Assembly (NCBI RefSeq): GCF_056712565.1
Contig: NZ_CM160072.1
Direction: 5' to 3' (one strand)
Length of the DNA stretch: 64,000 nucleotides
Positions 5,617 through 49,581 of the stretch are shown here, one piece after another; the first letter of the stretch is position 1, and every line of letters starts with the position of its first letter. Both the position numbers and the translations under genes were made by a program. Under the pieces are notes generated by a model. That model was not told the origin of the DNA. It made no database searches and saw nothing but the letters and a program-made list of their open reading frames with translations.

Positions 5617-6636
5617 TCAAAAATCGGCTTTCAACACCACGCGGTAACGCGCCTTACCGTCGCGCACATGCTGGATGGCGTCGTTAATTTTCGACATCGG
5701 GAACAGTTCGGTAGTCGGCGCAACCTTGCTGCGGGCGGCAAAGCGCATCAGCTTACGCAACTCATAAGGTGTACCGGTAGCAGAGCCAGAGACACTGCGA
5801 TCGCCCGCAATCAGCGTAAAGGCCGGAACCGGCAACGGCGTGAGAACCGCACCGACGGTGTGGAAATTACCGCCATACGTCAGCGCCTCAAAATAAGGCT
5901 GCCAGTCGAGGCTGACGTTCACAGTATTGATAATGAGATCAAACTGCCCCGCCAGAGTTTTCAGTGCCTGCGGATCGCGGCTATTCACCACTTTATCGGC
6001 ACCCATCGCCAGTACTTCCTGCTCTTTCGCCGGATTTGAACTAAAGGCTGTCACCTCGCATCCCATTGCGTGCAGAAGTTTTATAGCGATATGCCCCAGC
6101 CCGCCAATACCAATTACCCCAACGCGGCTGGTAGCAGTGATATGGTGCATCAACAGTGGTTTAAAGACCGTGATACCGCCGCACAACAGCGGCCCGGCGG
6201 ACTCGATATCAATATTTTCTGGCAGTGGAATCACCCATTGCCAGTCCGCACGCAACTTCTCGGCAAAGCCACCGCGATTCATAATCGTCGGCACCGCACC
6301 TTGCTCGCAGTTGATCTGATTACCGCTAATACAGGCGTCGCAGTGACCACAGCTACGCGCCGTCCAGCCAATCCCGACACGCTGACCGACCTGCAAACCT
6401 TTATCCTGCGCGGCGCTCCCGAGTGCCACCACGCGCCCAATCACCTCATGCCCGGCAACCAGCGGATATTGTGAAAATCCCCATTCGTTATCGATCATCG
6501 ACAGATCGGAATGGCAGATCCCGCAGTAATCCACCTGCACTTCAACATCTTGTGGCCTCAGCTCACCGGGATCGTACTCATAAACTTCCAGTTCGCCGCC
6601 CGCTTCTTTTGCGGCATAGCTTTTTATCATCGACAT
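5617..6636 (-). CDS. ahr: NADPH-dependent aldehyde reductase Ahr (YjgB), zinc-ADH family
   Basis: ORF 5617..6678; start set at [14 protein letters not shown] (339 aa); zinc-ADH motif GICHSDL. Confidence 0.8.
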
Positions 6637-12515: not shown

Positions 12516-13941
12516 TAATGCCAGTCAGTTAAGCAACTGACTGGCTCTTTTTCGGGGCTGTGGGGTATTTCCAGGGCCTCTCCTTTACCACTCTCGGGAA
12601 GGCCCTTTCCCTTCTTGTCGGTAATTTCACAAGTTGTCCCATACTTGCAAGATCGCGCATCAGCTCCGGTATACGTCCCGGTGAAGCGCCCTGCAATGTT
12701 ATCAGCATTCTCATCACCATTCCGCATGATTCTGAGAAACTCAGTTGATTCGGCCAGTAACCTTTCAGATGTTCCGCCATTTTAATCATCTGATATCTCA
12801 CCAGATTATAAGCCAGTAAGACACCCCACAGCTCTTGCTCCACAAGCTCCGGCTTTTTACTTCTCAGCGTCAGCCTGCTCCGTTGCATCGTCTGTTTTAT
12901 CTCCCTGTATCCCAGTTCGATTTCCCAGCGATGACTGTACAGATCCCCCATTTCTCCTCCGGGGAAGCGCATGGCGTCCGTCATCGACGTCAGCAGATGG
13001 CAGACTTTTCCTTTGCGCGTCACGGTCAGCAGGCGGGCAGTCACTTCATTTCCCAGTCCCGGCCACTTTTTTCGTGCCTGCGGGCTGGTTTTCAGCTTCA
13101 CCAGATGATCGCCTTTACCCAGTTTTCTGATCTCTTCATATTGCGCTCCCTTTCTGAGAGGTATCATCCAGTGGCGGTGTTCTCCCGCCAGGCTCCAGGC
13201 ATTTAACAGTCCCAGTGAGTAATAACCTTTATCCATTAACGTCAGAGTGTTATCGCCGGTTTGTTCTATAAGTTGCTCAGCAAGCTCATTTTCGCTGTTC
13301 TTCATCGTGCCGAAGGCTGCAGCCGTCAGCAGATGGCTGGTCAGTTCCATCTGGCAGACCATTTTGACCTGCGGGTAGAGCGCCGGGTTCCCGGCATGTG
13401 TCTGGCGGGGGAAGGCTGCATCGTTCTCTGGTGTATCCGGTGTGCGCCAGAACACACCATCGATGGCCAGCAGGGTCAGGCCGCACCAGTGCGGATGCGG
13501 CGTGGCGTTATGCCAGAGCTGCGCTGTTTTCGTGAACACGCGGCGGACAGCCTCACTTCCCAGGCGCTGGCGGGCCTGAATAACGGCACTGGGGGCAACG
13601 AAGGGGCGATTGCCCGGCAGCATGATGTCCAGGCGATTCACAATCTGGTGAAGAGGTTCTTTACGCTCAAGCGCCATGCCAACAATACACCAGACCATCA
13701 TTTCGAGGGGAAGACGGCGCTTGCGTAGCGTTACAGTACCTGATTCGGCAAGGCAACGAGAGATGAGTTCGGGGTCGAGGTAATCCCCCAGAGAAGTCAG
13801 TGGGTTACGCAGAGAATCGTAACGGGATACCAGATCAAGAGCCTGTCCAATGTGCATAAAAAAATCCGGAAACAAGTGAGCGTTTCCGGATTCTTACACA
13901 GCCACTGGATCGGTCAACTGATCCTTAACTGATCGGCATTA
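12516..13941 (-). mobile_element. IS4 insertion sequence (1426 bp) with 18-bp terminal inverted repeats
   Basis: Ends TAATGCCAGTCAGTTAAG ... CTTAACTGATCGGCATTA; length 1426 bp; encodes the IS4 transposase. Confidence 0.9.
12529..13857 (-). CDS. insG: IS4 transposase (InsG)
   Basis: ORF 12529..13875; start set at [16 protein letters not shown] (442 aa); DDE transposase. Confidence 0.9.
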
Positions 13942-41401: not shown

Positions 41402-42274
41402 ATGAATCCGTCTGATGCCATTGAGGCAATTGAAAAACCGCTCTCCTCCCTGCCTTACTCACTTTCCCGTCACATCCTGGAACATCTGCGCAAACTCACC
41501 AGTCACGAACCCGTGATTGGCATTATGGGTAAAAGCGGGGCCGGTAAATCCTCACTCTGTAATGCACTGTTTCAGGGGGAGGTCACCCCGGTCAGTGATG
41601 TTCACGCCGGCACCCGGGAAGTACGGCGCTTCCGTCTGAGTGGCCACGGTCACAGCATGGTTATCACTGACCTGCCCGGGGTGGGCGAGAGCCGGGACAG
41701 GGATGCAGAGTATGAAGCCCTGTACCGTGACATTCTGCCCGAACTGGACCTGGTGCTGTGGCTGATTAAAGCCGATGACCGCGCCCTGTCTGTGGATGAG
41801 TATTTCTGGCGACACATCCTGCACCGGGGACATCAGCAGGTGCTGTTTGTGGTGACGCAGGCCGACAAAACGGAGCCCTGCCATGAATGGGATATGGCCG
41901 GCATTCAGCCTTCTCCCGCACAGGCACAGAACATTCGGGAGAAAACGGAGGCGGTATTCCGTCTGTTCCGGCCCGTACATCCGGTTGTTGCCGTATCGGC
42001 CCGCACCGGCTGGGAACTGGATACGCTGGTCAGTGCGCTAATGACAGCACTTCCCGACCATGCCGCCAGTCCCCTGATGACCCGCCTGCAGGACGAGCTG
42101 CGCACGGAATCTGTCCGCGCTCAGGCCCGTGAACAGTTTACCGGTGCGGTGGACCGGATATTTGACACGGCGGAGAGCGTCTGTGTTGCCTCTGTTGCCC
42201 GTACGGTTCTGCGTGCCGTCCGTGACACGGTGGTCTCTGTTGCCCGCGCTGTATGGAACTGGATTTTCTTCTGA
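41402..42274 (+). CDS. YeeP/YkfA/YfjP-type GTPase (CP4 prophage family)
   Basis: ORF 41363..42274, start MNPSDAIEAIE; G1 motif GKSGAGKSS, G3 DLPG; precedes the Ag43 gene as in CP4-44. Confidence 0.8.
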   Translation: MNPSDAIEAIEKPLSSLPYSLSRHILEHLRKLTSHEPVIGIMGKSGAGKSSLCNALFQGEVTPVSDVHAGTREVRRFRLSGHGHSMVITDLPGVGESRDRDAEYEALYRDILPELDLVLWLIKADDRALSVDEYFWRHILHRGHQQVLFVVTQADKTEPCHEWDMAGIQPSPAQAQNIREKTEAVFRLFRPVHPVVAVSARTGWELDTLVSALMTALPDHAASPLMTRLQDELRTESVRAQAREQFTGAVDRIFDTAESVCVASVARTVLRAVRDTVVSVARAVWNWIFF

Positions 42275-42392
42275 ACAGTCCGCCAGGGAAATGCCTGATA
42301 ACATTACGTTAACCAACTGAAAACATGACACAAACCCCTCATACTCCTCCTGTTTCTCTTGCGTGACCGCCTTGTCGTTAATAGAATAAAAC

Positions 42393-42428
42393 GATCGATA
42401 AAACAGGTATCGATCGTTACTATCGATC
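42393..42428 (+). promoter_or_regulatory. Antigen 43 phase-variation switch: three GATC (Dam) sites, expected to overlap the OxyR site
   Basis: GATC at 42393, 42412 and 42425 (spacing 19 and 13 bp) about 220 bp upstream of the flu start codon. Confidence 0.65.
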
Positions 42429-42645
42429 GTTTATAGTGGTTAATGGTCTGCGAAAAGGCAGCTGAATCTCTTCATCATGCAGAACGGAATTGCACACAAC
42501 GGACTGATACTTCTCTGGCGGATGAGAGAGGGGAAGCATTTATGTCCGGGAAAAACCACTTTATCTGAGCATGCTGTTTTGTACCTGCCGGTATCCACAT
42601 TTGTGGGTACCGGCTTTTTTATTCACCCTCTGTAAGGAAAAGCTG

Positions 42646-45600
42646 ATGAAACGACATCTGAACACCAGCTACAGGCTGGTATGGAATCACATTACGGGCA
42701 CCCTGGTGGTGGCCTCCGAACTGGCCCGCTCACGGGGAAAACGCGCTGGTGTGGCGGTTGCGCTGTCTCTTGCTGCTGTCACATCAGTCCCGGCACTGGC
42801 TGCTGACAAGGTTGTACAGGCGGGAGAAACCGTGAACGACGGAACACTGACAAATCATGACAACCAGATTGTCCTCGGTACGGCCAACGGAATGACCATC
42901 AGTACCGGTCTGGAGTATGGGCCGGATAACGAGGCCAATACCGGCGGACAATGGATACAAAATGGCGGTATCGCCAACAACACTACTGTCACCGGTGGTG
43001 GTCTTCAGAGAGTGAATGCCGGAGGAAGCGTTTCAGACACGGTTATCAGTGCCGGAGGCGGACAGAGCCTTCAGGGGCAGGCAGTGAACACCACTCTGAA
43101 CGGCGGTGAGCAGTGGGTACATGAAGGCGGGATTGCAACGGGTACCGTCATTAATGAGAAGGGCTGGCAGGCCATCAAATCCGGCGCAGTGGCAACCGAC
43201 ACGGTTGTGAATACCGGCGCGGAAGGGGGACCGGATGCGGAAAATGGTGATACCGGGCAGACCGTCTACGGAGATGCCGTACGCACCACCATCAATAAAA
43301 ATGGTCGTCAGATTGTGGCTGCTGAAGGAACGGCAAATACCACTGTGGTTTATGCCGGCGGCGACCAGACTGTACATGGTCACGCACTGGATACCACGCT
43401 GAATGGGGGGTACCAGTATGTGCACAACGGCGGTACGGCGTCTGGCACTGTTGTAAACAGTGACGGCTGGCAGATTGTCAAAAACGGGGGTGTGGCCGGG
43501 AATACCACCGTTAATCAGAAGGGCAGACTGCAGGTGGACGCCGGTGGTACAGCCACGAATGTCACCCTGAAGCAGGGCGGCGCACTGGTTACCAGTACGG
43601 CTGCAACCGTTACCGGCATAAACCGCCTGGGAGCATTCTCTGTTGTGGAGGGTAAAGCTGATAATGTCGTACTGGAAAATGGCGGACGCCTGGATGTGCT
43701 GACCGGACACACAGCCACTAATACCCGCGTGGATGATGGCGGAACGCTGGATGTCCGCAACGGTGGCACCGCCACCACCGTATCCATGGGAAATGGCGGT
43801 GTACTGCTGGCCGATTCCGGTGCCGCTGTCAGTGGTACCCGGAGCGACGGAAAGGCATTCAGTATCGGAGGCGGTCAGGCGGATGCCCTGATGCTGGAAA
43901 AAGGCAGTTCATTCACGCTGAACGCCGGTGATACGGCCACGGATACCACGGTAAATGGCGGACTGTTCACCGCCAGGGGCGGCACACTGGCGGGCACCAC
44001 CACGCTGAATAACGGCGCCATACTTACCCTTTCCGGGAAGACGGTGAACAACGATACCCTGACCATCCGTGAAGGCGATGCACTCCTGCAGGGAGGCTCT
44101 CTCACCGGTAACGGCAGCGTGGAAAAATCAGGAAGTGGCACACTCACTGTCAGCAACACCACACTCACCCAGAAAGCCGTCAACCTGAATGAAGGCACGC
44201 TGACGCTGAACGACAGTACCGTCACCACGGATGTCATTGCTCAGCGCGGTACAGCCCTGAAGCTGACCGGCAGCACTGTGCTGAACGGTGCCATTGACCC
44301 CACGAATGTCACTCTCGCCTCTGGTGCCACCTGGAATATTCCCGATAACGCCACGGTGCAGTCGGTGGTGGATGACCTCAGCCATGCTGGACAGATTCAT
44401 TTCACCTCCACCCGCACAGGGAAGTTCGTACCGGCAACCCTGAAAGTGAAAAACCTGAACGGACAGAATGGCACCATCAGCCTGCGTGTACGCCCGGATA
44501 TGGCACAGAACAATGCTGACAGACTGGTCATTGACGGTGGCAGGGCAACTGGAAAAACCATCCTGAACCTGGTGAACGCCGGCAACAGTGCGTCGGGGCT
44601 GGCGACCAGCGGTAAGGGTATTCAGGTGGTGGAAGCCATTAACGGTGCCACCACGGAGGAAGGGGCCTTTATCCAGGGGAATAAGCTGCAGGCCGGTGCC
44701 TTTAACTACTCCCTCAACCGGGACAGTGATGAGAGCTGGTATCTGCGCAGTGAAAATGCTTATCGTGCTGAAGTCCCCCTGTATACATCCATGCTGACAC
44801 AGGCAATGGACTATGACCGGATTCTGGCAGGCTCCCGCAGCCATCAGACCGGTGTAAACGGTGAAAATAACAGCGTCCGTCTCAGCATTCAGGGCGGTCA
44901 TCTCGGTCACGATAACAACGGCGGTATTGCCCGTGGAGCCACGCCGGAAAGCAGCGGCAGTTATGGCTTCGTCCGTCTGGAGGGTGACCTGCTGAGAACA
45001 GAGGTTGCCGGTATGTCTCTGACGACAGGGGTGTATGGTGCCGCAGGCCATTCTTCCGTTGATGTTAAGGATGATGACGGTTCCCGCGCCGGCACGGTCC
45101 GGGATGATGCCGGCAGTCTGGGCGGATACCTGAATCTGGTACACACGTCCTCCGGCCTGTGGGCTGACATTGTGGCACAGGGAACCCGCCACAGCATGAA
45201 AGCATCATCGGACAATAACGACTTCCGCGCCCGGGGCTGGGGCTGGCTGGGCTCACTGGAAACCGGTCTGCCCTTCAGTATCACTGACAATCTGATGCTG
45301 GAGCCACAACTGCAGTACACCTGGCAGGGACTCTCCCTGGATGACGGCCAGGATAACGCCGGTTATGTGAAGTTCGGGCATGGCAGTGCACAACATGTGC
45401 GTGCCGGCTTCCGTCTGGGCAGCCACAACGATATGAACTTTGGTAAAGGCACCTCATCCCGTGACACCCTGCGCGACAGTGCCAAACACAGTGTGCGTGA
45501 ATTGCCGGTGAACTGGTGGGTACAGCCTTCTGTTATCCGCACTTTCAGCTCCCGGGGTGACATGAGCATGGGTACAGCCGCCGCCGGCAGTAACATGACG

Positions 45601-45765
45601 TTCTCACCGTCCCGGAATGGCACGTCACTGGACCTGCAGGCCGGACTGGAAGCCCGTGTCCGGGAAAATATCACCCTGGGCGTTCAGGCCGGTTATGCCC
45701 ACAGCGTCAGCGGCAGCAGCGCTGAAGGTTATAACGGTCAGGCCACGCTGAATGTGACTTTTTGA
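42646..45765 (+). CDS. flu: Antigen 43 self-associating autotransporter adhesin
   Basis: ORF 42571..45765; start [52 protein letters not shown] (extended autotransporter signal peptide); repetitive Gly/Thr/Asn beta-helix passenger; C-terminal beta-barrel ending …GQATLNVTF. Confidence 0.9.
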
Positions 45766-45788
45766 TAATCAGGTCACTCTCCTTCAGG

Positions 45789-45815
45789 CCCCGGTCATCA
45801 TGACCGGGGCTTTTT
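45789..45815 (+). terminator. Rho-independent terminator of flu
   Basis: Hairpin CCCCGGTCA-TCA-TGACCGGGG followed by CTTTTT. Confidence 0.7.
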
Positions 45816-45835
45816 ACTTTCAGGGAGCAACAGAT

Positions 45836-45994
45836 ATGCCGGGTTGTACATCTCGTTTATTGCCCGAAGGCCCTTTCTCACGCGAACAGGCTGTTGCCGT
45901 CAAAACAGCTTACCGCAATGTGTTTACTGAAGATGACCAGGGAACATATTCCCGGCTGGTTATCCGTAATGCTGAAGGTCAGTTGCGCTGGTGA
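45836..45994 (+). CDS. Small hypothetical protein (52 aa) of CP4-type modules
   Basis: In-frame ATG downstream of the flu terminator within ORF 45800..45994. Confidence 0.35.
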
Positions 45995-46148
45995 TGCCGG
46001 AACACAGCTTAATACTCAGCTCGCCAGTTAAGGGCTTCTCAGACAATAAACGTCATTCATTTCATCTGTCAGGCCGCGTCTTCTCCGGGAGACGTGGCTT
46101 TTTCATTTATTACACCAGTAAATCGTAACCACCGATAAGGAGCAAATT

Positions 46149-46967
46149 ATGCGACTAGCCAGTCGTTTTGGTTATGCGAACCAGATACGCCGTGACCGTC
46201 CGCTGACACACGAAGAACTGATGCACTATGTTCCCAGTATTTTCGGTGAAGACCGGCATACTTCCCGCAGTAAACGATATGCGTACATTCCCACCATCAC
46301 CGTACTGGAAAGCCTGCAGCGGGAAGGCTTTCAGCCATTCTTCGCCTGCCAGACCCGTGTGCGCGACCCGGGCCGCCGGGGATACACAAAACACATGCTG
46401 CGTCTGCGGCGGGCCGGAGAGATAAACGGAGAACATGTCCCTGAAATCATTCTGCTCAACTCCCATGACGGTACCTCCAGCTACCAGATGCTGCCGGGTT
46501 ACTTCAGGTTCGTCTGTCAGAACGGATGCGTCTGTGGTCAGTCTCTGGGGGAAGTGCGTGTTCCGCACCGGGGAAATGTGGTGGACAGATTCATTGAAGG
46601 GGCTTACGAGGTGGTGGGCGTGTTTGACCGGATAGAGGAGAAGCATGATGCCATGCAGTCGCTGGTCCTGTCGCCACCGGCACGCCAGGCGCTGGCACAG
46701 GCGGCACTGACTTACCGTTATGGTGACGAACATCAGCCAGTCACCACCGCTGACATTCTGACACCACGACGCAGGGAGGGTTACGGTCAGGACCTGTGGA
46801 GCGCATATCAGACCATCCAGGAGAATATGCTGAAAGGCGGAATTTCCGGCCGCAGTGCAAAAGGAAAACGTATCCACACCCGTGCCATTCACAACATCGA
46901 CACCGATATTAAGCTCAACCGCGCATTGTGGGTAATGGCAGAAACGCTGCTGGAGAGCCTGCGCTGA
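46149..46967 (+). CDS. DUF932-like protein (YfjQ/YafZ family)
   Basis: 272 aa; size and position after the GTPase/Ag43 genes match YfjQ/YafZ-type proteins (recollection). Confidence 0.6.
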   Translation: MRLASRFGYANQIRRDRPLTHEELMHYVPSIFGEDRHTSRSKRYAYIPTITVLESLQREGFQPFFACQTRVRDPGRRGYTKHMLRLRRAGEINGEHVPEIILLNSHDGTSSYQMLPGYFRFVCQNGCVCGQSLGEVRVPHRGNVVDRFIEGAYEVVGVFDRIEEKHDAMQSLVLSPPARQALAQAALTYRYGDEHQPVTTADILTPRRREGYGQDLWSAYQTIQENMLKGGISGRSAKGKRIHTRAIHNIDTDIKLNRALWVMAETLLESLR

Positions 46968-47308
46968 TGCAGCATGTCCCTGAAAGCGTGATTCAGGCAC
47001 CAGAATCACCCGACGCCCCGGAGGCGCTGCCGGGGTGTCGTTCCATTTCTGATGATGACCTGTGCGCCTGGTGTACCCGTCTGCTTTACCGTCCCGGAGA
47101 AATCAGTCTGTGCAGACTGAGTATACAGGCAATGGCATCTGGCCATCCGTCTGTGACCGGAACGGTTACGCGTACGGCTGTCCGGAATTTCAGCCGAATA
47201 TCATTCATCCCTGATATTACCGGGTCATCACGGTCAGTGATGAACGTGATGTTGCCAGCTCCCGACCTTTACTCCCTCTCATTTATTCACATTACAAGGA
47301 TTTCATAC

Positions 47309-47782
47309 ATGAAAACATTGTCTCAGAACACCACCTCTTCGGCCTGTGCACCGGAGACTGACCTGCAAAAACTGGTAGCCACTCCCGTCCCTGATGAACG
47401 GCGCATCAGCTTCTGGCCGCAGCACTTTGGCCTCATTCCACAGTGGGTGACCCTGGAGCCCCGTATCTTCGGCTGGATGGACCGTCTGTGTGAAGACTAC
47501 TGCGGTGGTATCTGGAATCTGTACACCCTGAACAACGGCGGGGCATTTATGGCACCCGAACCGGATGACGATGATGACGAAACATGGGTACTGTTCAATG
47601 CCATGAACGGTAACCGCGCTGAAATGAGCCCGGAAGCCGCCGGCATTGCTGCCTGTCTGATGACGTACAGTCATCATGCCTGTCGTACGGAGTGTTATGC
47701 CATGACGGTCCATTATTACCGGCTGCGGGATTACGCCCTGCAGCATCCGGAATGCAGCGCCATTATGCGCATCATCGACTGA
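47309..47782 (+). CDS. Antirestriction protein (KlcA/ArdB-like; YfjX/YafX family)
   Basis: 157 aa from MKTLSQNTTSS…; upstream part of the same ORF (46967..47308) may be a separate small gene or an N-terminal extension. Confidence 0.65.
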   Translation: MKTLSQNTTSSACAPETDLQKLVATPVPDERRISFWPQHFGLIPQWVTLEPRIFGWMDRLCEDYCGGIWNLYTLNNGGAFMAPEPDDDDDETWVLFNAMNGNRAEMSPEAAGIAACLMTYSHHACRTECYAMTVHYYRLRDYALQHPECSAIMRIID

Positions 47783-47797
47783 ATGGAGAGAAGTACA

Positions 47798-48274
47798 ATG
47801 CAACAGCTTTCCTTTCTGCCCGGAGAGATGACGCCCGGCGAGCGCAGCCTCATTCAACGGGCCCTGAAAACCCTGGACCGCCATCTTCATGAACCCGGCG
47901 TGGCCTTCACCTCCACCCGTGCGGCACGAGAATGGCTGATTCTGAACATGGCGGGACTGGAGCGTGAAGAGTTCCGGGTGCTGTATCTGAACAACCAGAA
48001 TCAGCTGATTGCCGGTGAAACCCTCTTCACCGGCACCATCAACCGCACGGAAGTCCATCCCCGGGAAGTGATTAAACGCGCCCTGTATCACAATGCCGCT
48101 GCTGTGGTGCTGGCACACAATCACCCGTCCGGTGAAGTCACACCCAGCAAGGCAGACCGCCTTATCACGGAACGTCTGGTACAGGCACTGGGCCTGGTGG
48201 ATATCCGGGTGCCGGACCATCTGATAGTCGGTGGCAGCCAGGTTTTCTCCTTTGCCGAATATGGTCTGCTTTAA
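47798..48274 (+). CDS. RadC-like JAB-domain protein (YeeS/YkfG/YfjY family)
   Basis: JAMM motif HNHPSGEVTPSKAD; ORF 47783..48274. Confidence 0.8.
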   Translation: MQQLSFLPGEMTPGERSLIQRALKTLDRHLHEPGVAFTSTRAAREWLILNMAGLEREEFRVLYLNNQNQLIAGETLFTGTINRTEVHPREVIKRALYHNAAAVVLAHNHPSGEVTPSKADRLITERLVQALGLVDIRVPDHLIVGGSQVFSFAEYGLL

Positions 48275-48336
48275 CCCGTCACAACCACATCACACCTGTT
48301 TTCACTTTTATCTTCTGTCTTCAGAGGTATCCCACT

Positions 48337-48558
48337 ATGAAAATCATCACCCGTGGCGAAGCCATGCGTATTCACCGTCAGCATCCGGCATCCCGTCTTT
48401 TTCCGTTCTGTACCGGCAAATACCGCTGGCACGGCAGTGCTGAAGCGTATACCGGTCGTGAAGTGCAGGATATTCCCGGTGTGCTGGCCGTGTTTGCAGA
48501 ACGCCGTAAGGACAGTTTTGGTCCGTATGTCCGGCTGATGAGCGTCACCCTGAACTGA
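48337..48558 (+). CDS. YeeT-like small protein (DUF987)
   Basis: 73 aa; position between the RadC-like gene and the antitoxin as in CP4-44. Confidence 0.65.
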   Translation: MKIITRGEAMRIHRQHPASRLFPFCTGKYRWHGSAEAYTGREVQDIPGVLAVFAERRKDSFGPYVRLMSVTLN

Positions 48559-48720
48559 TGTTCCGTCACCCGGAAAACGAGTACGACTGGCAGAGCTCAG
48601 ACGCCGCTGTGGATGAGGTCCTGCTCATCAACGAATACACCTTTACCGAAGCCGGTCTGCGCGCCGGCTGACCCGTCATCGTTAAACTATCATTCACCGA
48701 TTTTCTGTGAGGATTTTATC

Positions 48721-49089
48721 GTGTCAGACACACTTTCCGGGACAACGCATCCCGATGACAATGACGACCATCCCTGGTGGGGACTACCCTGCACAGTGAC
48801 GCCCTGTTTCGGCGCCCGTCTGGTGCAGGAGGGTAACCGGTTGCATTACCTTGCCGACCGTGCCGGTATCAGAGGCCGGTTCAGAGATGCGGATGCGTAC
48901 CCTCTGGACCAGGCCTTTCCGCTGCTGATGAAACAACTGAAATTAATGCTCACCAGTGGTGAACTGAATCCCCGCCATCAGCATACCGTGACACTGTATG
49001 CGAAGGGGCTGACCTGTGAAGCCGACACCCTCGGCTCCTGTGGTTACGTTTATCTGGCTGTTTATCCGACACCTGAAACGAAAAAGTAA
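48721..49089 (+). CDS. cbeA: CbeA/YeeU-family antitoxin, GTG start
   Basis: VSDTLSGTTHPDDNDDHPWWGLPCTVTPCFGARLVQEGNRLHYLADRAGIRG…TPETKK, 122 aa, matches the CbeA family along its length. Confidence 0.75.
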   Translation: MSDTLSGTTHPDDNDDHPWWGLPCTVTPCFGARLVQEGNRLHYLADRAGIRGRFRDADAYPLDQAFPLLMKQLKLMLTSGELNPRHQHTVTLYAKGLTCEADTLGSCGYVYLAVYPTPETKK

Positions 49090-49178
49090 ACCACCAGAAT
49101 AACCTTCTGCTCCGGCCTGGTGTTTTCACCACGCCACTGTCCCATTTTTTATCTCTGCATATCAGGAAAATCTTCAGT

Positions 49179-49409
49179 ATGAAAACATTACCCGACACGC
49201 ATGTACGGGAGGTATCGTGCTGCCCGTCTCCAGTCACCATCTGGCAGACACTGCTCACCCGGTTACTGGACCAGCATTCCCTGATTTCCTCATCGATATC
49301 GAATAAGCACTCGTCGCAGAATTCTTTATCGAGTGAGAGCCTCTGTTCAAGGACGCTTCTTTTTTTTGTTGCAACGTGCACATCCCTTCATCTTTCCGCG
49401 CCTTTGTGA
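49179..49409 (+). pseudogene. cbtA: Truncated CbtA/YeeV-family toxin gene (only about the first 33 codons are toxin-like)
   Basis: MKTLPDTHVREVSCCPSPVTIWQTLLTRLLDQH matches the CbtA/YkfI/YpjF N-terminus; from about 49278 the frame reads unrelated low-complexity sequence. Confidence 0.7.
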
Positions 49410-49546
49410 CCTCGTGATTTGGGGTACATGGAAAATGGGCGTAGCAAGCCTCAGCTAGATAACTAACCGTAATAAAAGGGCTTTTCTGCGAGCAATGTAA
49501 GAGAAGGATAACTAGGCAGGTTGCAAGAAAGATAATCGTTTTGATA

Positions 49547-49581
49547 GATCAGTTTATCGATATTGATCGTTAGTGCCGATC
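49547..49581 (+). promoter_or_regulatory. Second GATC triplet resembling the Ag43 Dam/OxyR switch, about 450 bp upstream of mtnK
   Basis: GATC at 49547, 49565, 49578 (spacing 18 and 13 bp versus 19 and 13 in the flu switch); shared GATCGTTA-N5-GATCG core. Confidence 0.35.

Follow-up and report, generated by a model that had tools for sequence, protein, structure and literature searches.

The window analyzed here is a stretch of 64,000 nucleotides (NCBI RefSeq assembly GCF_056712565.1, contig NZ_CM160072.1), given as a single strand from 5' to 3'. It contains a leuX-associated island with the gene order idn genes, tRNA-Leu, integrase, many IS elements, nanXY, fec operon, YfjI, YeeP-type GTPase and flu (agn43), followed by DUF932, an antirestriction gene, RadC/JAB, YeeU and a truncated cbtA. 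The right end of the island is located at approximately 49276, beyond which the mtnK operon begins. The whole window is collinear with the genome of Escherichia coli MCJCHV-1 (approximately 99.9% identity), and the closest genome is that of a CSF isolate. According to the MCJCHV-1 annotation of the right end of the island (about 49179–49277), the cbtA toxin gene is truncated and the YeeU-type antitoxin gene is intact.

The preliminary description of this DNA had reported an intact 1039-aa reading frame for antigen 43 (Ag43), which was confirmed by our analysis (table 1). The encoded protein contains the Pfam domains ESPR, AIDA (five copies), AC_1 and Autotransporter, and reached 1913 bits against the NCBIfam equivalog auto_Ag43 (cutoff 1200). 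Its architecture comprises an ESPR signal peptide, AIDA repeats, an autochaperone domain and a beta-barrel. It is 95% identical to K-12 Flu in a gapless alignment and keeps the D551-P552 processing site; among solved structures, it matches the Ag43a passenger most closely (PDB 4kh3, E = 1e-237). A longer open reading frame (ORF) starting from an ATG at 42571 was rejected as the flu start, as the leader terminator is located downstream of this ATG and K-12 uses the other, conserved start.

The region downstream of flu (45789–46031) contains a strong terminator and a frameshifted DUF905 gene. Neither yeeR nor irmA is present there, unlike in CFT073, in which agn43, yeeR and irmA form an operon (PMC4807369). 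Because the terminator hairpin directly follows the gene, flu is probably monocistronic here, and the switch upstream probably controls flu alone. On the other side of the switch, the MCJCHV-1 locus, which is 99.97% identical, has the GTPase gene annotated as "GTPase family protein". A YeeP-type GTPase gene also precedes the operator in K-12, O157, UTI89, CFT073, CE10 and Citrobacter braakii.

Table 1. Features of the flu locus and of its regulatory region, in window coordinates
Feature	Position	Strand	Remarks
YeeP-family GTPase gene	41402..42274	+	Immediately upstream of the switch; Pfam MMR_HSR1, 1e-14; island backbone
-35-like hexamer TTGCGT	42359..42364	+	3/6 to TTGACA; 17 bp from the -10; aligns with K-12 TTGTCC
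Stretch equivalent to the reported K-12 OxyR(C199S) footprint	42377..42434		Coordinates carried over by K-12 alignment
OxyR half-site A, ATAGAATAAAACGAT	42381..42395		Predicted; 8/10 to ATAGnTnnnAnCTAT, consensus scan
-10 hexamer TAGAAT	42382..42387	+	Identical in K-12, O157 cah, UTI89, CFT073, CE10 and C. braakii alleles
flu leader RNA, IS102/IsrC sRNA (Rfam RF00124)	42391..42627	+	74.6 bits vs. gathering score 46; E 1.5e-12; full model 1-206
GATC-I	42393-42396		Read from sequence
GATC-II	42412-42415		Overlaps left arm of half-site C
OxyR half-site C, ATCGTTACTATCGAT	42413..42427		Predicted; 8/10, consensus scan; 32 bp from half-site A
GATC-III	42425-42428		Overlaps right arm of half-site C
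Intrinsic terminator in leader	42587..42620	+	12-bp stem (42587-42614) then T6; terminator scan; forms in RNA fold
Shine-Dalgarno AAGGA	42634..42638	+	7 nt before ATG; conserved in K-12
flu/agn43, intact 1039-aa Ag43 autotransporter	42646..45765	+	Pfam, NCBIfam, K-12 alignment, PDB
Terminator hairpin CCCCGGTCATCATGACCGGGG then CTTTTT	45789..45815	+	3' of flu; read from sequence

Promoter and Leader of flu

A strict consensus promoter scan revealed no promoter at the switch, where the -35 is too weak. We set this result aside as evidence against a promoter because the -10 hexamer is identical to that of the proven K-12 promoter. The distance from the -10 to GATC-I is 5 nt, the same as in K-12. 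In the K-12 gene, agn43 transcription was reportedly mapped by Wallecha and colleagues in 2002 to the G of GATC-I, and the corresponding start in the window would be G 42393 or an adjacent base. The K-12 isrC annotation begins at the G equivalent to 42393, and the start of the Rfam IS102 match in the window (42391) is also near GATC-I.

The leader is 253 nt long in the window versus 222 nt in K-12 (31 nt longer) and diverges from approximately +40 to +190, and its terminator is kept in K-12. The locus as a whole is a mosaic: the coding sequence (42646–45765) is K-12-like at 95% amino acid identity, and the promoter, operator and mid-leader (within 42275–42646) belong to the lineage of UTI89 flu and O157 cah. 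Within this regulatory part, high identity to K-12 is limited to roughly the final 70 bp in front of the ATG. This structure implies recombination within the leader.

Three GATC Sites and a Pair of Predicted OxyR Half-Sites

It had been proposed that three GATC sites lie within 36 bp, approximately 220 bp upstream of the flu start. Both values hold: the span 42393–42428 is exact, and the distance from the last GATC to the ATG at 42646 is 218 bp. The start-to-start spacing of the three sites (19/13 bp) is identical to that of the K-12 flu operator (2318, 2337 and 2350 in K-12 locus L001), and the same spacing was found in flu/cah alleles of O157:H7, UTI89, S4, EC18, 2014C-3097, 64EVA and CFT073. 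Promoters with three similarly spaced GATC sites have been described for both Ag43 allele groups (PMC2808357).

To judge how unusual such a cluster is, we compared the window with a first-order Markov simulation, which predicted 1.2 three-GATC clusters within 36 bp per 64 kb; four were observed (starting at 6493, 13908, 42393 and 49547). A triplet of this size is thus not rare by itself, and it is homology that identifies the site. On the other hand, the exact 19/13 spacing is expected only ~0.002–0.003 times per window (calculated at one GATC per 300 bp), and the three operator sites are the sole GATCs between 41273 and 49547 (8.3 kb). The 19/13 spacing and its GATC-poor setting are nonrandom.

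OxyR half-sites were scored against the consensus ATAGnTnnnAnCTAT (PMC2909390). On average, the window contains one match of at least 8/10 per ~4.3 kb, and nowhere else in the 64 kb are two such matches separated by 32 bp as half-sites A and C are. Half-site A holds most of the -10 hexamer and its right arm overlaps GATC-I, and GATC-II and GATC-III overlap the two arms of half-site C, so that all three GATC sites are overlapped by the pair. The operator is two-fold symmetric about 42404, and its inner arms are connected by an 11-bp inverted repeat (AACGATCGATA / TATCGATCGTT).

The spacing of 32 bp is one helical turn above the contiguous 22-bp arrangement of half-sites. Reduced OxyR is said to contact DNA in just this way, with one helical turn beyond the contiguous 22-bp arrangement (work of Toledano and colleagues, 1994). 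The OxyR(C199S) footprint on K-12 agn43 reportedly extends from -16 to +42 (Wallecha and colleagues, 2002), and the predicted pair would fit within the equivalent stretch of the window.

Comparison of Operator Alleles

We compared the window with the K-12 operator base by base. Shared segments include AATAGAATAAAACGATC, running from the -10 through GATC-I, and the cores TATCGATCGTT at GATC-II and ATCGATCG at GATC-III. Half-site A is identical to that of K-12, and both half-sites match K-12 at every position specified by the consensus. The loss of OxyR half-sites on alignment with characterized agn43 regulatory regions, which the preliminary description had named as evidence against a switch, was therefore not observed for the outer half-sites A and C over the three GATCs. 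The differences lie elsewhere: between GATC-I and GATC-II, 8 of 15 bases differ (GATAAAACAGGTATC in the window vs. AATATCTATTTTATC in K-12), two more bases differ between GATC-II and GATC-III, and behind GATC-III the window has GTTTATAG and K-12 has GATAAGCT.

Multiple alignment of 11 alleles with 19/13 spacing (window, K-12, O157 cah, UTI89, S4, EC18, 2014C-3097, 64EVA, C. braakii, Citrobacter amalonaticus and Citrobacter werkmanii) revealed where variation is tolerated. Within half-sites A and C, the specified positions are identical in 10.9 of 11 alleles on average, versus 8.4 of 11 at the n positions, and half-site A is near-invariant at its specified positions. The differences between alleles in the two half-sites are found mainly at these noncontact (n) positions. 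The most variable part of the operator is formed by seven central columns (+9 to +15), at which 5–6 of the 11 alleles are identical.

These data bear on how the operator should be described. A contiguous 37-bp OxyR consensus register, with half-sites 22 bp apart, scores 14/20 in K-12 and falls to 10/20 in the window because the K-12 ATCTAT element is gone, having been replaced by other sequence. Considered by itself, this drop would suggest that a half-site has been partly lost. The 11 alleles instead conserve half-sites 32 bp apart. Since its columns are the most variable in all lineages, the 37-bp register is probably not the constrained one. The elements under constraint appear to be half-sites A and C together with the three GATC sites, all of which are intact in the window, and the central element of K-12 appears to be unconstrained.

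The same divergence raises the question of whether a homologous operator might behave differently here. In addition to the lower score of the 37-bp register, the -35 hexamer matches the consensus at 3/6 positions versus 4/6 in K-12, and the leader is longer and divergent over much of its length; OxyR affinity or promoter strength may have changed, which might lead to a strong bias toward ON or OFF or to other switching rates. However, the divergent central columns are the least conserved in all lineages, which argues that they are noncontact positions, the outer half-sites and the three GATCs are unchanged, and a defective switch would not be expected to be the majority allele. We consider altered behavior improbable, although it is the strongest of the alternatives to an ordinary agn43 switch.

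The window-type operator (126-bp query, at least 80% coverage) was detected in 3451 of 5426 complete E. coli genomes and is the majority E. coli allele. A 376-bp stretch upstream of and into flu, which is 100% identical to that of MCJCHV-1, was covered to at least 80% in 3445 of the 5426 genomes, always annotated beside agn43 or cah. The agn43b gene of CFT073 carries a K-12-type operator.

Several unusual cases were observed among related loci. In E. coli E7-1N7 (locus L022, about 2480–2510), the promoter has been lost naturally: the -35 and -10 hexamers have given way to an IS200 insertion, which extends as far as the AAAAC preceding GATC-I. In E. coli STEC2018-553, an IS3 element is found in place of the whole operator upstream of flu. 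A 1.56-kb contig labeled as a Collinsella sp. metagenome-assembled genome (JAIJJM010000733.1) carries a flu regulatory region that agrees with the cah type of E. coli at almost every base and is very probably E. coli contamination of a metagenome bin.

Identity of the Switch and Its Expected Behavior

The preliminary description had concluded that the cluster matches the architecture of the agn43 epigenetic switch. This conclusion is supported by the GATC spacing, the -10 hexamer, the leader with its terminator, the upstream GTPase gene and the intact Ag43 frame, and all features of such a switch that sequence can address appear to be present. Alignment indicates that the site is orthologous to the characterized K-12 agn43 operator. 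We are therefore confident that the cluster is a genuine agn43 (flu) epigenetic switch, in the allele of most E. coli.

The behavior of such switches is known from K-12, in which OxyR acts as a repressor when bound to the unmethylated operator and protects the GATC sites from Dam, OxyR and Dam compete for hemimethylated DNA, and cells switch between ON and OFF at approximately 1e-2 to 1e-3 per generation (PMC4872104, PMC3764049, PMC13337833). In K-12, OxyR no longer binds once the GATC sites are methylated, and these sites carry methyl groups in ON cells but not in OFF cells (PMC4872104, PMC13337833). In EC958, the agn43 transcript was increased 121-fold in an oxyR mutant (PMC4807369), and flu promoter fusions of EAEC 042 gave both ON and OFF clones (PMC9431211). 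A literature search for methylome or genetic data or experiments on the exact operator allele of the window found none in the papers covered. OxyR binding, methylation sensitivity and switching are published results for K-12, and we infer the same behavior for the window allele.

By analogy with K-12, a sigma-70 promoter (TTGCGT, 17-bp spacer, TAGAAT) would start transcription at or next to G 42393. An OxyR tetramer would occupy the two 15-bp half-sites, whose centers are 32 bp apart; since bound OxyR would cover the -10 and the start, RNA polymerase would be blocked and the cell would be OFF. Of the four ATAG-type arms in the operator, three overlap a GATC, one site each. Methylation of the GATC adenines by Dam would stop OxyR binding and turn the cell ON, and bound OxyR would in turn shield the GATCs from Dam. 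Replication would yield a hemimethylated operator for which OxyR and Dam compete, and because of this competition both states would be heritable but reversible. Transcripts made in the ON state would have to pass the 253-nt leader with its intrinsic terminator before reaching the 1039-aa frame, and this terminator may add a second control point.

The genes oxyR and dam were each found in 5425 of the 5426 complete E. coli genomes; the host very likely carries the two genes outside the window. Because they are near-universal in E. coli, flu transcription is very likely phase variable. It had also been suggested that Ag43 autoaggregation would be phase variable in this strain. Our analysis supports the expectation that transcription switches, whereas clumping goes one step beyond what the sequence can indicate. 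Visible autoaggregation is less certain than switching of transcription, as other surface structures can mask clumping; type 1 fimbriae and capsule have reportedly been found to shield Ag43 (Hasman and colleagues in 1999; Schembri and colleagues in 2004).

Another possibility is that the CGATCG palindromes do not serve as a switch based on DNA methylation but act mainly in RNA, where they would form the 5' stem-loop of the IS102/IsrC leader. In the Rfam IS102 model, a 5' hairpin arises by pairing of the segments at GATC-II and GATC-III, and folding of the leader is somewhat more stable than that of shuffled sequence (z = -2.5). However, published genetics and biochemistry of K-12 place control at the DNA (PMC4872104, PMC13337833), and the same operator is found with unrelated leaders in CE10 and Citrobacter, which makes a mainly RNA-based role very unlikely. 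RNA and DNA roles of these motifs are not mutually exclusive. As for a chance grouping of GATC sites without function, the four triplets observed versus 1.2 simulated might point to it, but the exact 19/13 spacing, the positional homology to the K-12 operator, the conservation in thousands of genomes and the otherwise GATC-free 8.3 kb leave it a negligible probability, and we rejected it as already refuted by the alignments.

The agn43 switch is an already known textbook element, and nothing new about its biology is reported here beyond two points on its alleles. First, the central part of the operator in the commonest E. coli allele is unlike the textbook sequence of K-12, which is unrepresentative there. 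Second, the conserved feature is the pair of half-sites 32 bp apart. With regard to the annotation of the window, the strain very probably shows heritable ON/OFF expression of Ag43. Such heritable states affect how aggregation, biofilm and transcriptome data from single colonies are read (PMC3764049).

Comparison with Related Dam-Dependent Systems

The locus is most similar to agn43/flu of the K-12 CP4-44 prophage. Both share the 19/13 GATC sites, TAGAAT, the AAAAC spacer before GATC-I, half-sites A and C, the IS102/IsrC leader with its terminator, a yeeP-type gene upstream and an Ag43 of 1039 aa. They differ in that yeeP is a pseudogene in K-12 but intact in the window, that yeeR is absent downstream of flu in the window, and that the regulatory lineage of the window is that of UTI89 flu and O157 cah, whereas its coding sequence is K-12-like.

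Lrp-Dam systems of the pap type likewise rely on a heritable methylation pattern that arises from competition between Dam and a DNA-binding regulator, but there Lrp acts with PapI on two GATC boxes ~102 bp apart within Lrp sites. No GATC was found at such a spacing at this locus, which is not a switch of the pap type. In the mom operator of phage Mu, Dam methylation of clustered GATC sites blocks the repressor OxyR, and the sites lie upstream of the mom promoter; mom is not known to be phase variable. This operator is also mentioned in a study of the Salmonella/P22 gtr system (PMC2909390).

The gtr system shares with the window the competition between OxyR and Dam and a GATC pair 13 bp apart inside one OxyR half-site, as is the case for GATC-II and GATC-III. 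However, the four GATCs of gtr form two pairs, and its three half-sites offer OxyR a choice of two positions, one of which activates and the other represses; all of these elements lie upstream of the start (PMC2909390). In contrast, the start in the window is covered by a single site, predicted to be repressing, and a second GATC pair is absent within 1 kb; apart from the three sites, no GATC was found within 1.1 kb upstream or 7.1 kb downstream, and the architecture is not that of gtr. Salmonella opvAB also has OxyR half-sites interleaved with GATC sites, opposite methylation patterns in the ON and OFF lineages and independence of OxyR's oxidation state, but its four half-sites and four GATCs lie upstream of the promoter, and activation requires OxyR (PMC4856963).

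Occurrence of the Operator Upstream of Other Genes

We examined the distribution of the operator module by a pattern scan of 100,044 species genomes and by searches of E. coli. In E. coli CE10 (locus L019, 2480–2620; also loci L028 and L027), a module with TTGCGT, TAGAAT, three GATC sites spaced 18/13 and two half-sites of 8/10 each was detected between a YeeP-type GTPase gene and a gene for a 798-aa dynamin-family (CrfC/RdcA-like) protein, which is followed by an RdcB-family gene. This arrangement, covered to at least 80%, is present in at least 1981 of the 5426 E. coli genomes. In O157:H7, the dynamin gene is located 110 bp behind cah and has no operator of its own.

Outside E. coli, homologous three-GATC operators with 19/13 spacing were detected in C. 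werkmanii (L011, 7175–7212, minus strand), C. braakii (L012, 5108–5145, minus strand) and C. amalonaticus (L017, 941–978). In C. werkmanii, the operator is followed by two ORFs of unknown function, a 2TM/SLATT effector and an oligonucleotide cyclase, a CBASS-like arrangement (PADLOC, E = 1e-115 and 6e-72). The C. braakii operator is flanked by a YeeP-type GTPase gene on one side and, on the other, by two unknown ORFs (154 and 157 aa) whose N-termini resemble signal peptides; DUF932 is located behind these ORFs. Three cyanobacterial or verrucomicrobial matches of the scan were discarded, as they look like chance occurrences in CGATCG-rich DNA. A literature search for a link between these cargo genes (including the dynamin-family gene) and OxyR/Dam control found none in the papers covered.

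Considering these cases, it is conceivable, and we suggest it tentatively, that the three-GATC OxyR operator is not specific to Ag43 but represents a portable promoter-operator cassette of the YeeP-GTPase (CP4-44-like) island family, with copies in front of nonadhesin cargo. If these other copies do switch, Dam/OxyR phase variation would reach nonadhesin cargo, including antiphage defense.

GATC-Free Tract and Other GATC Triplets

The flu ORF and the island backbone behind it (42429–49276, 6848 bp) contain no GATC, versus 23–26 expected (about 26 from dinucleotide content; P ~ 4e-12). The backbone genes of this tract are DUF905', DUF932, the antirestriction gene, RadC/JAB, DUF987, YeeU and cbtA'. 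The GTPase gene also lacks GATC (3.7 expected). Similar avoidance was observed in the flu and backbone genes of K-12 and CFT073 and is absent in yeeR, irmA and the dynamin-family cargo; TCGA and ACGT are likewise low in the tract. Possibly the tract insulates the switch from effects of SeqA and Dam, or it helps a mobile element to avoid restriction. If the other operator copies switch, the GATC-free tract of flu and backbone might be an adaptation that isolates the switch. Both this tract and the presence of the operator upstream of other cargo could merit separate study.

The remaining triplets of the window were also analyzed. A second triplet (49547, 49565 and 49578; 49547–49581) has 18/13 spacing and 7/10 OxyR-like half-sites at 49535 and 49566, 31 bp apart. 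Its geometry is that of the CE10-type operator, and it is present in 1075 of the 5426 genomes. It is located 436 bp upstream of mtnK, in DNA of the mtnK segment outside the flu island; a test for homology to the flu operator or to a remnant of yeeP was negative, and neither a promoter-like site nor an Rfam match was found for it. This triplet could be either a remote OxyR/Dam site or a chance cluster.

The triplet at 6493–6520 lies inside the ahr coding sequence, and neither it nor the triplet at 13908–13934 has OxyR-like half-sites. The latter is located 33–59 bp upstream of an IS4 transposase ORF (12529–13875, minus strand), inside the IS4 end, and might be related to Dam control of transposition.
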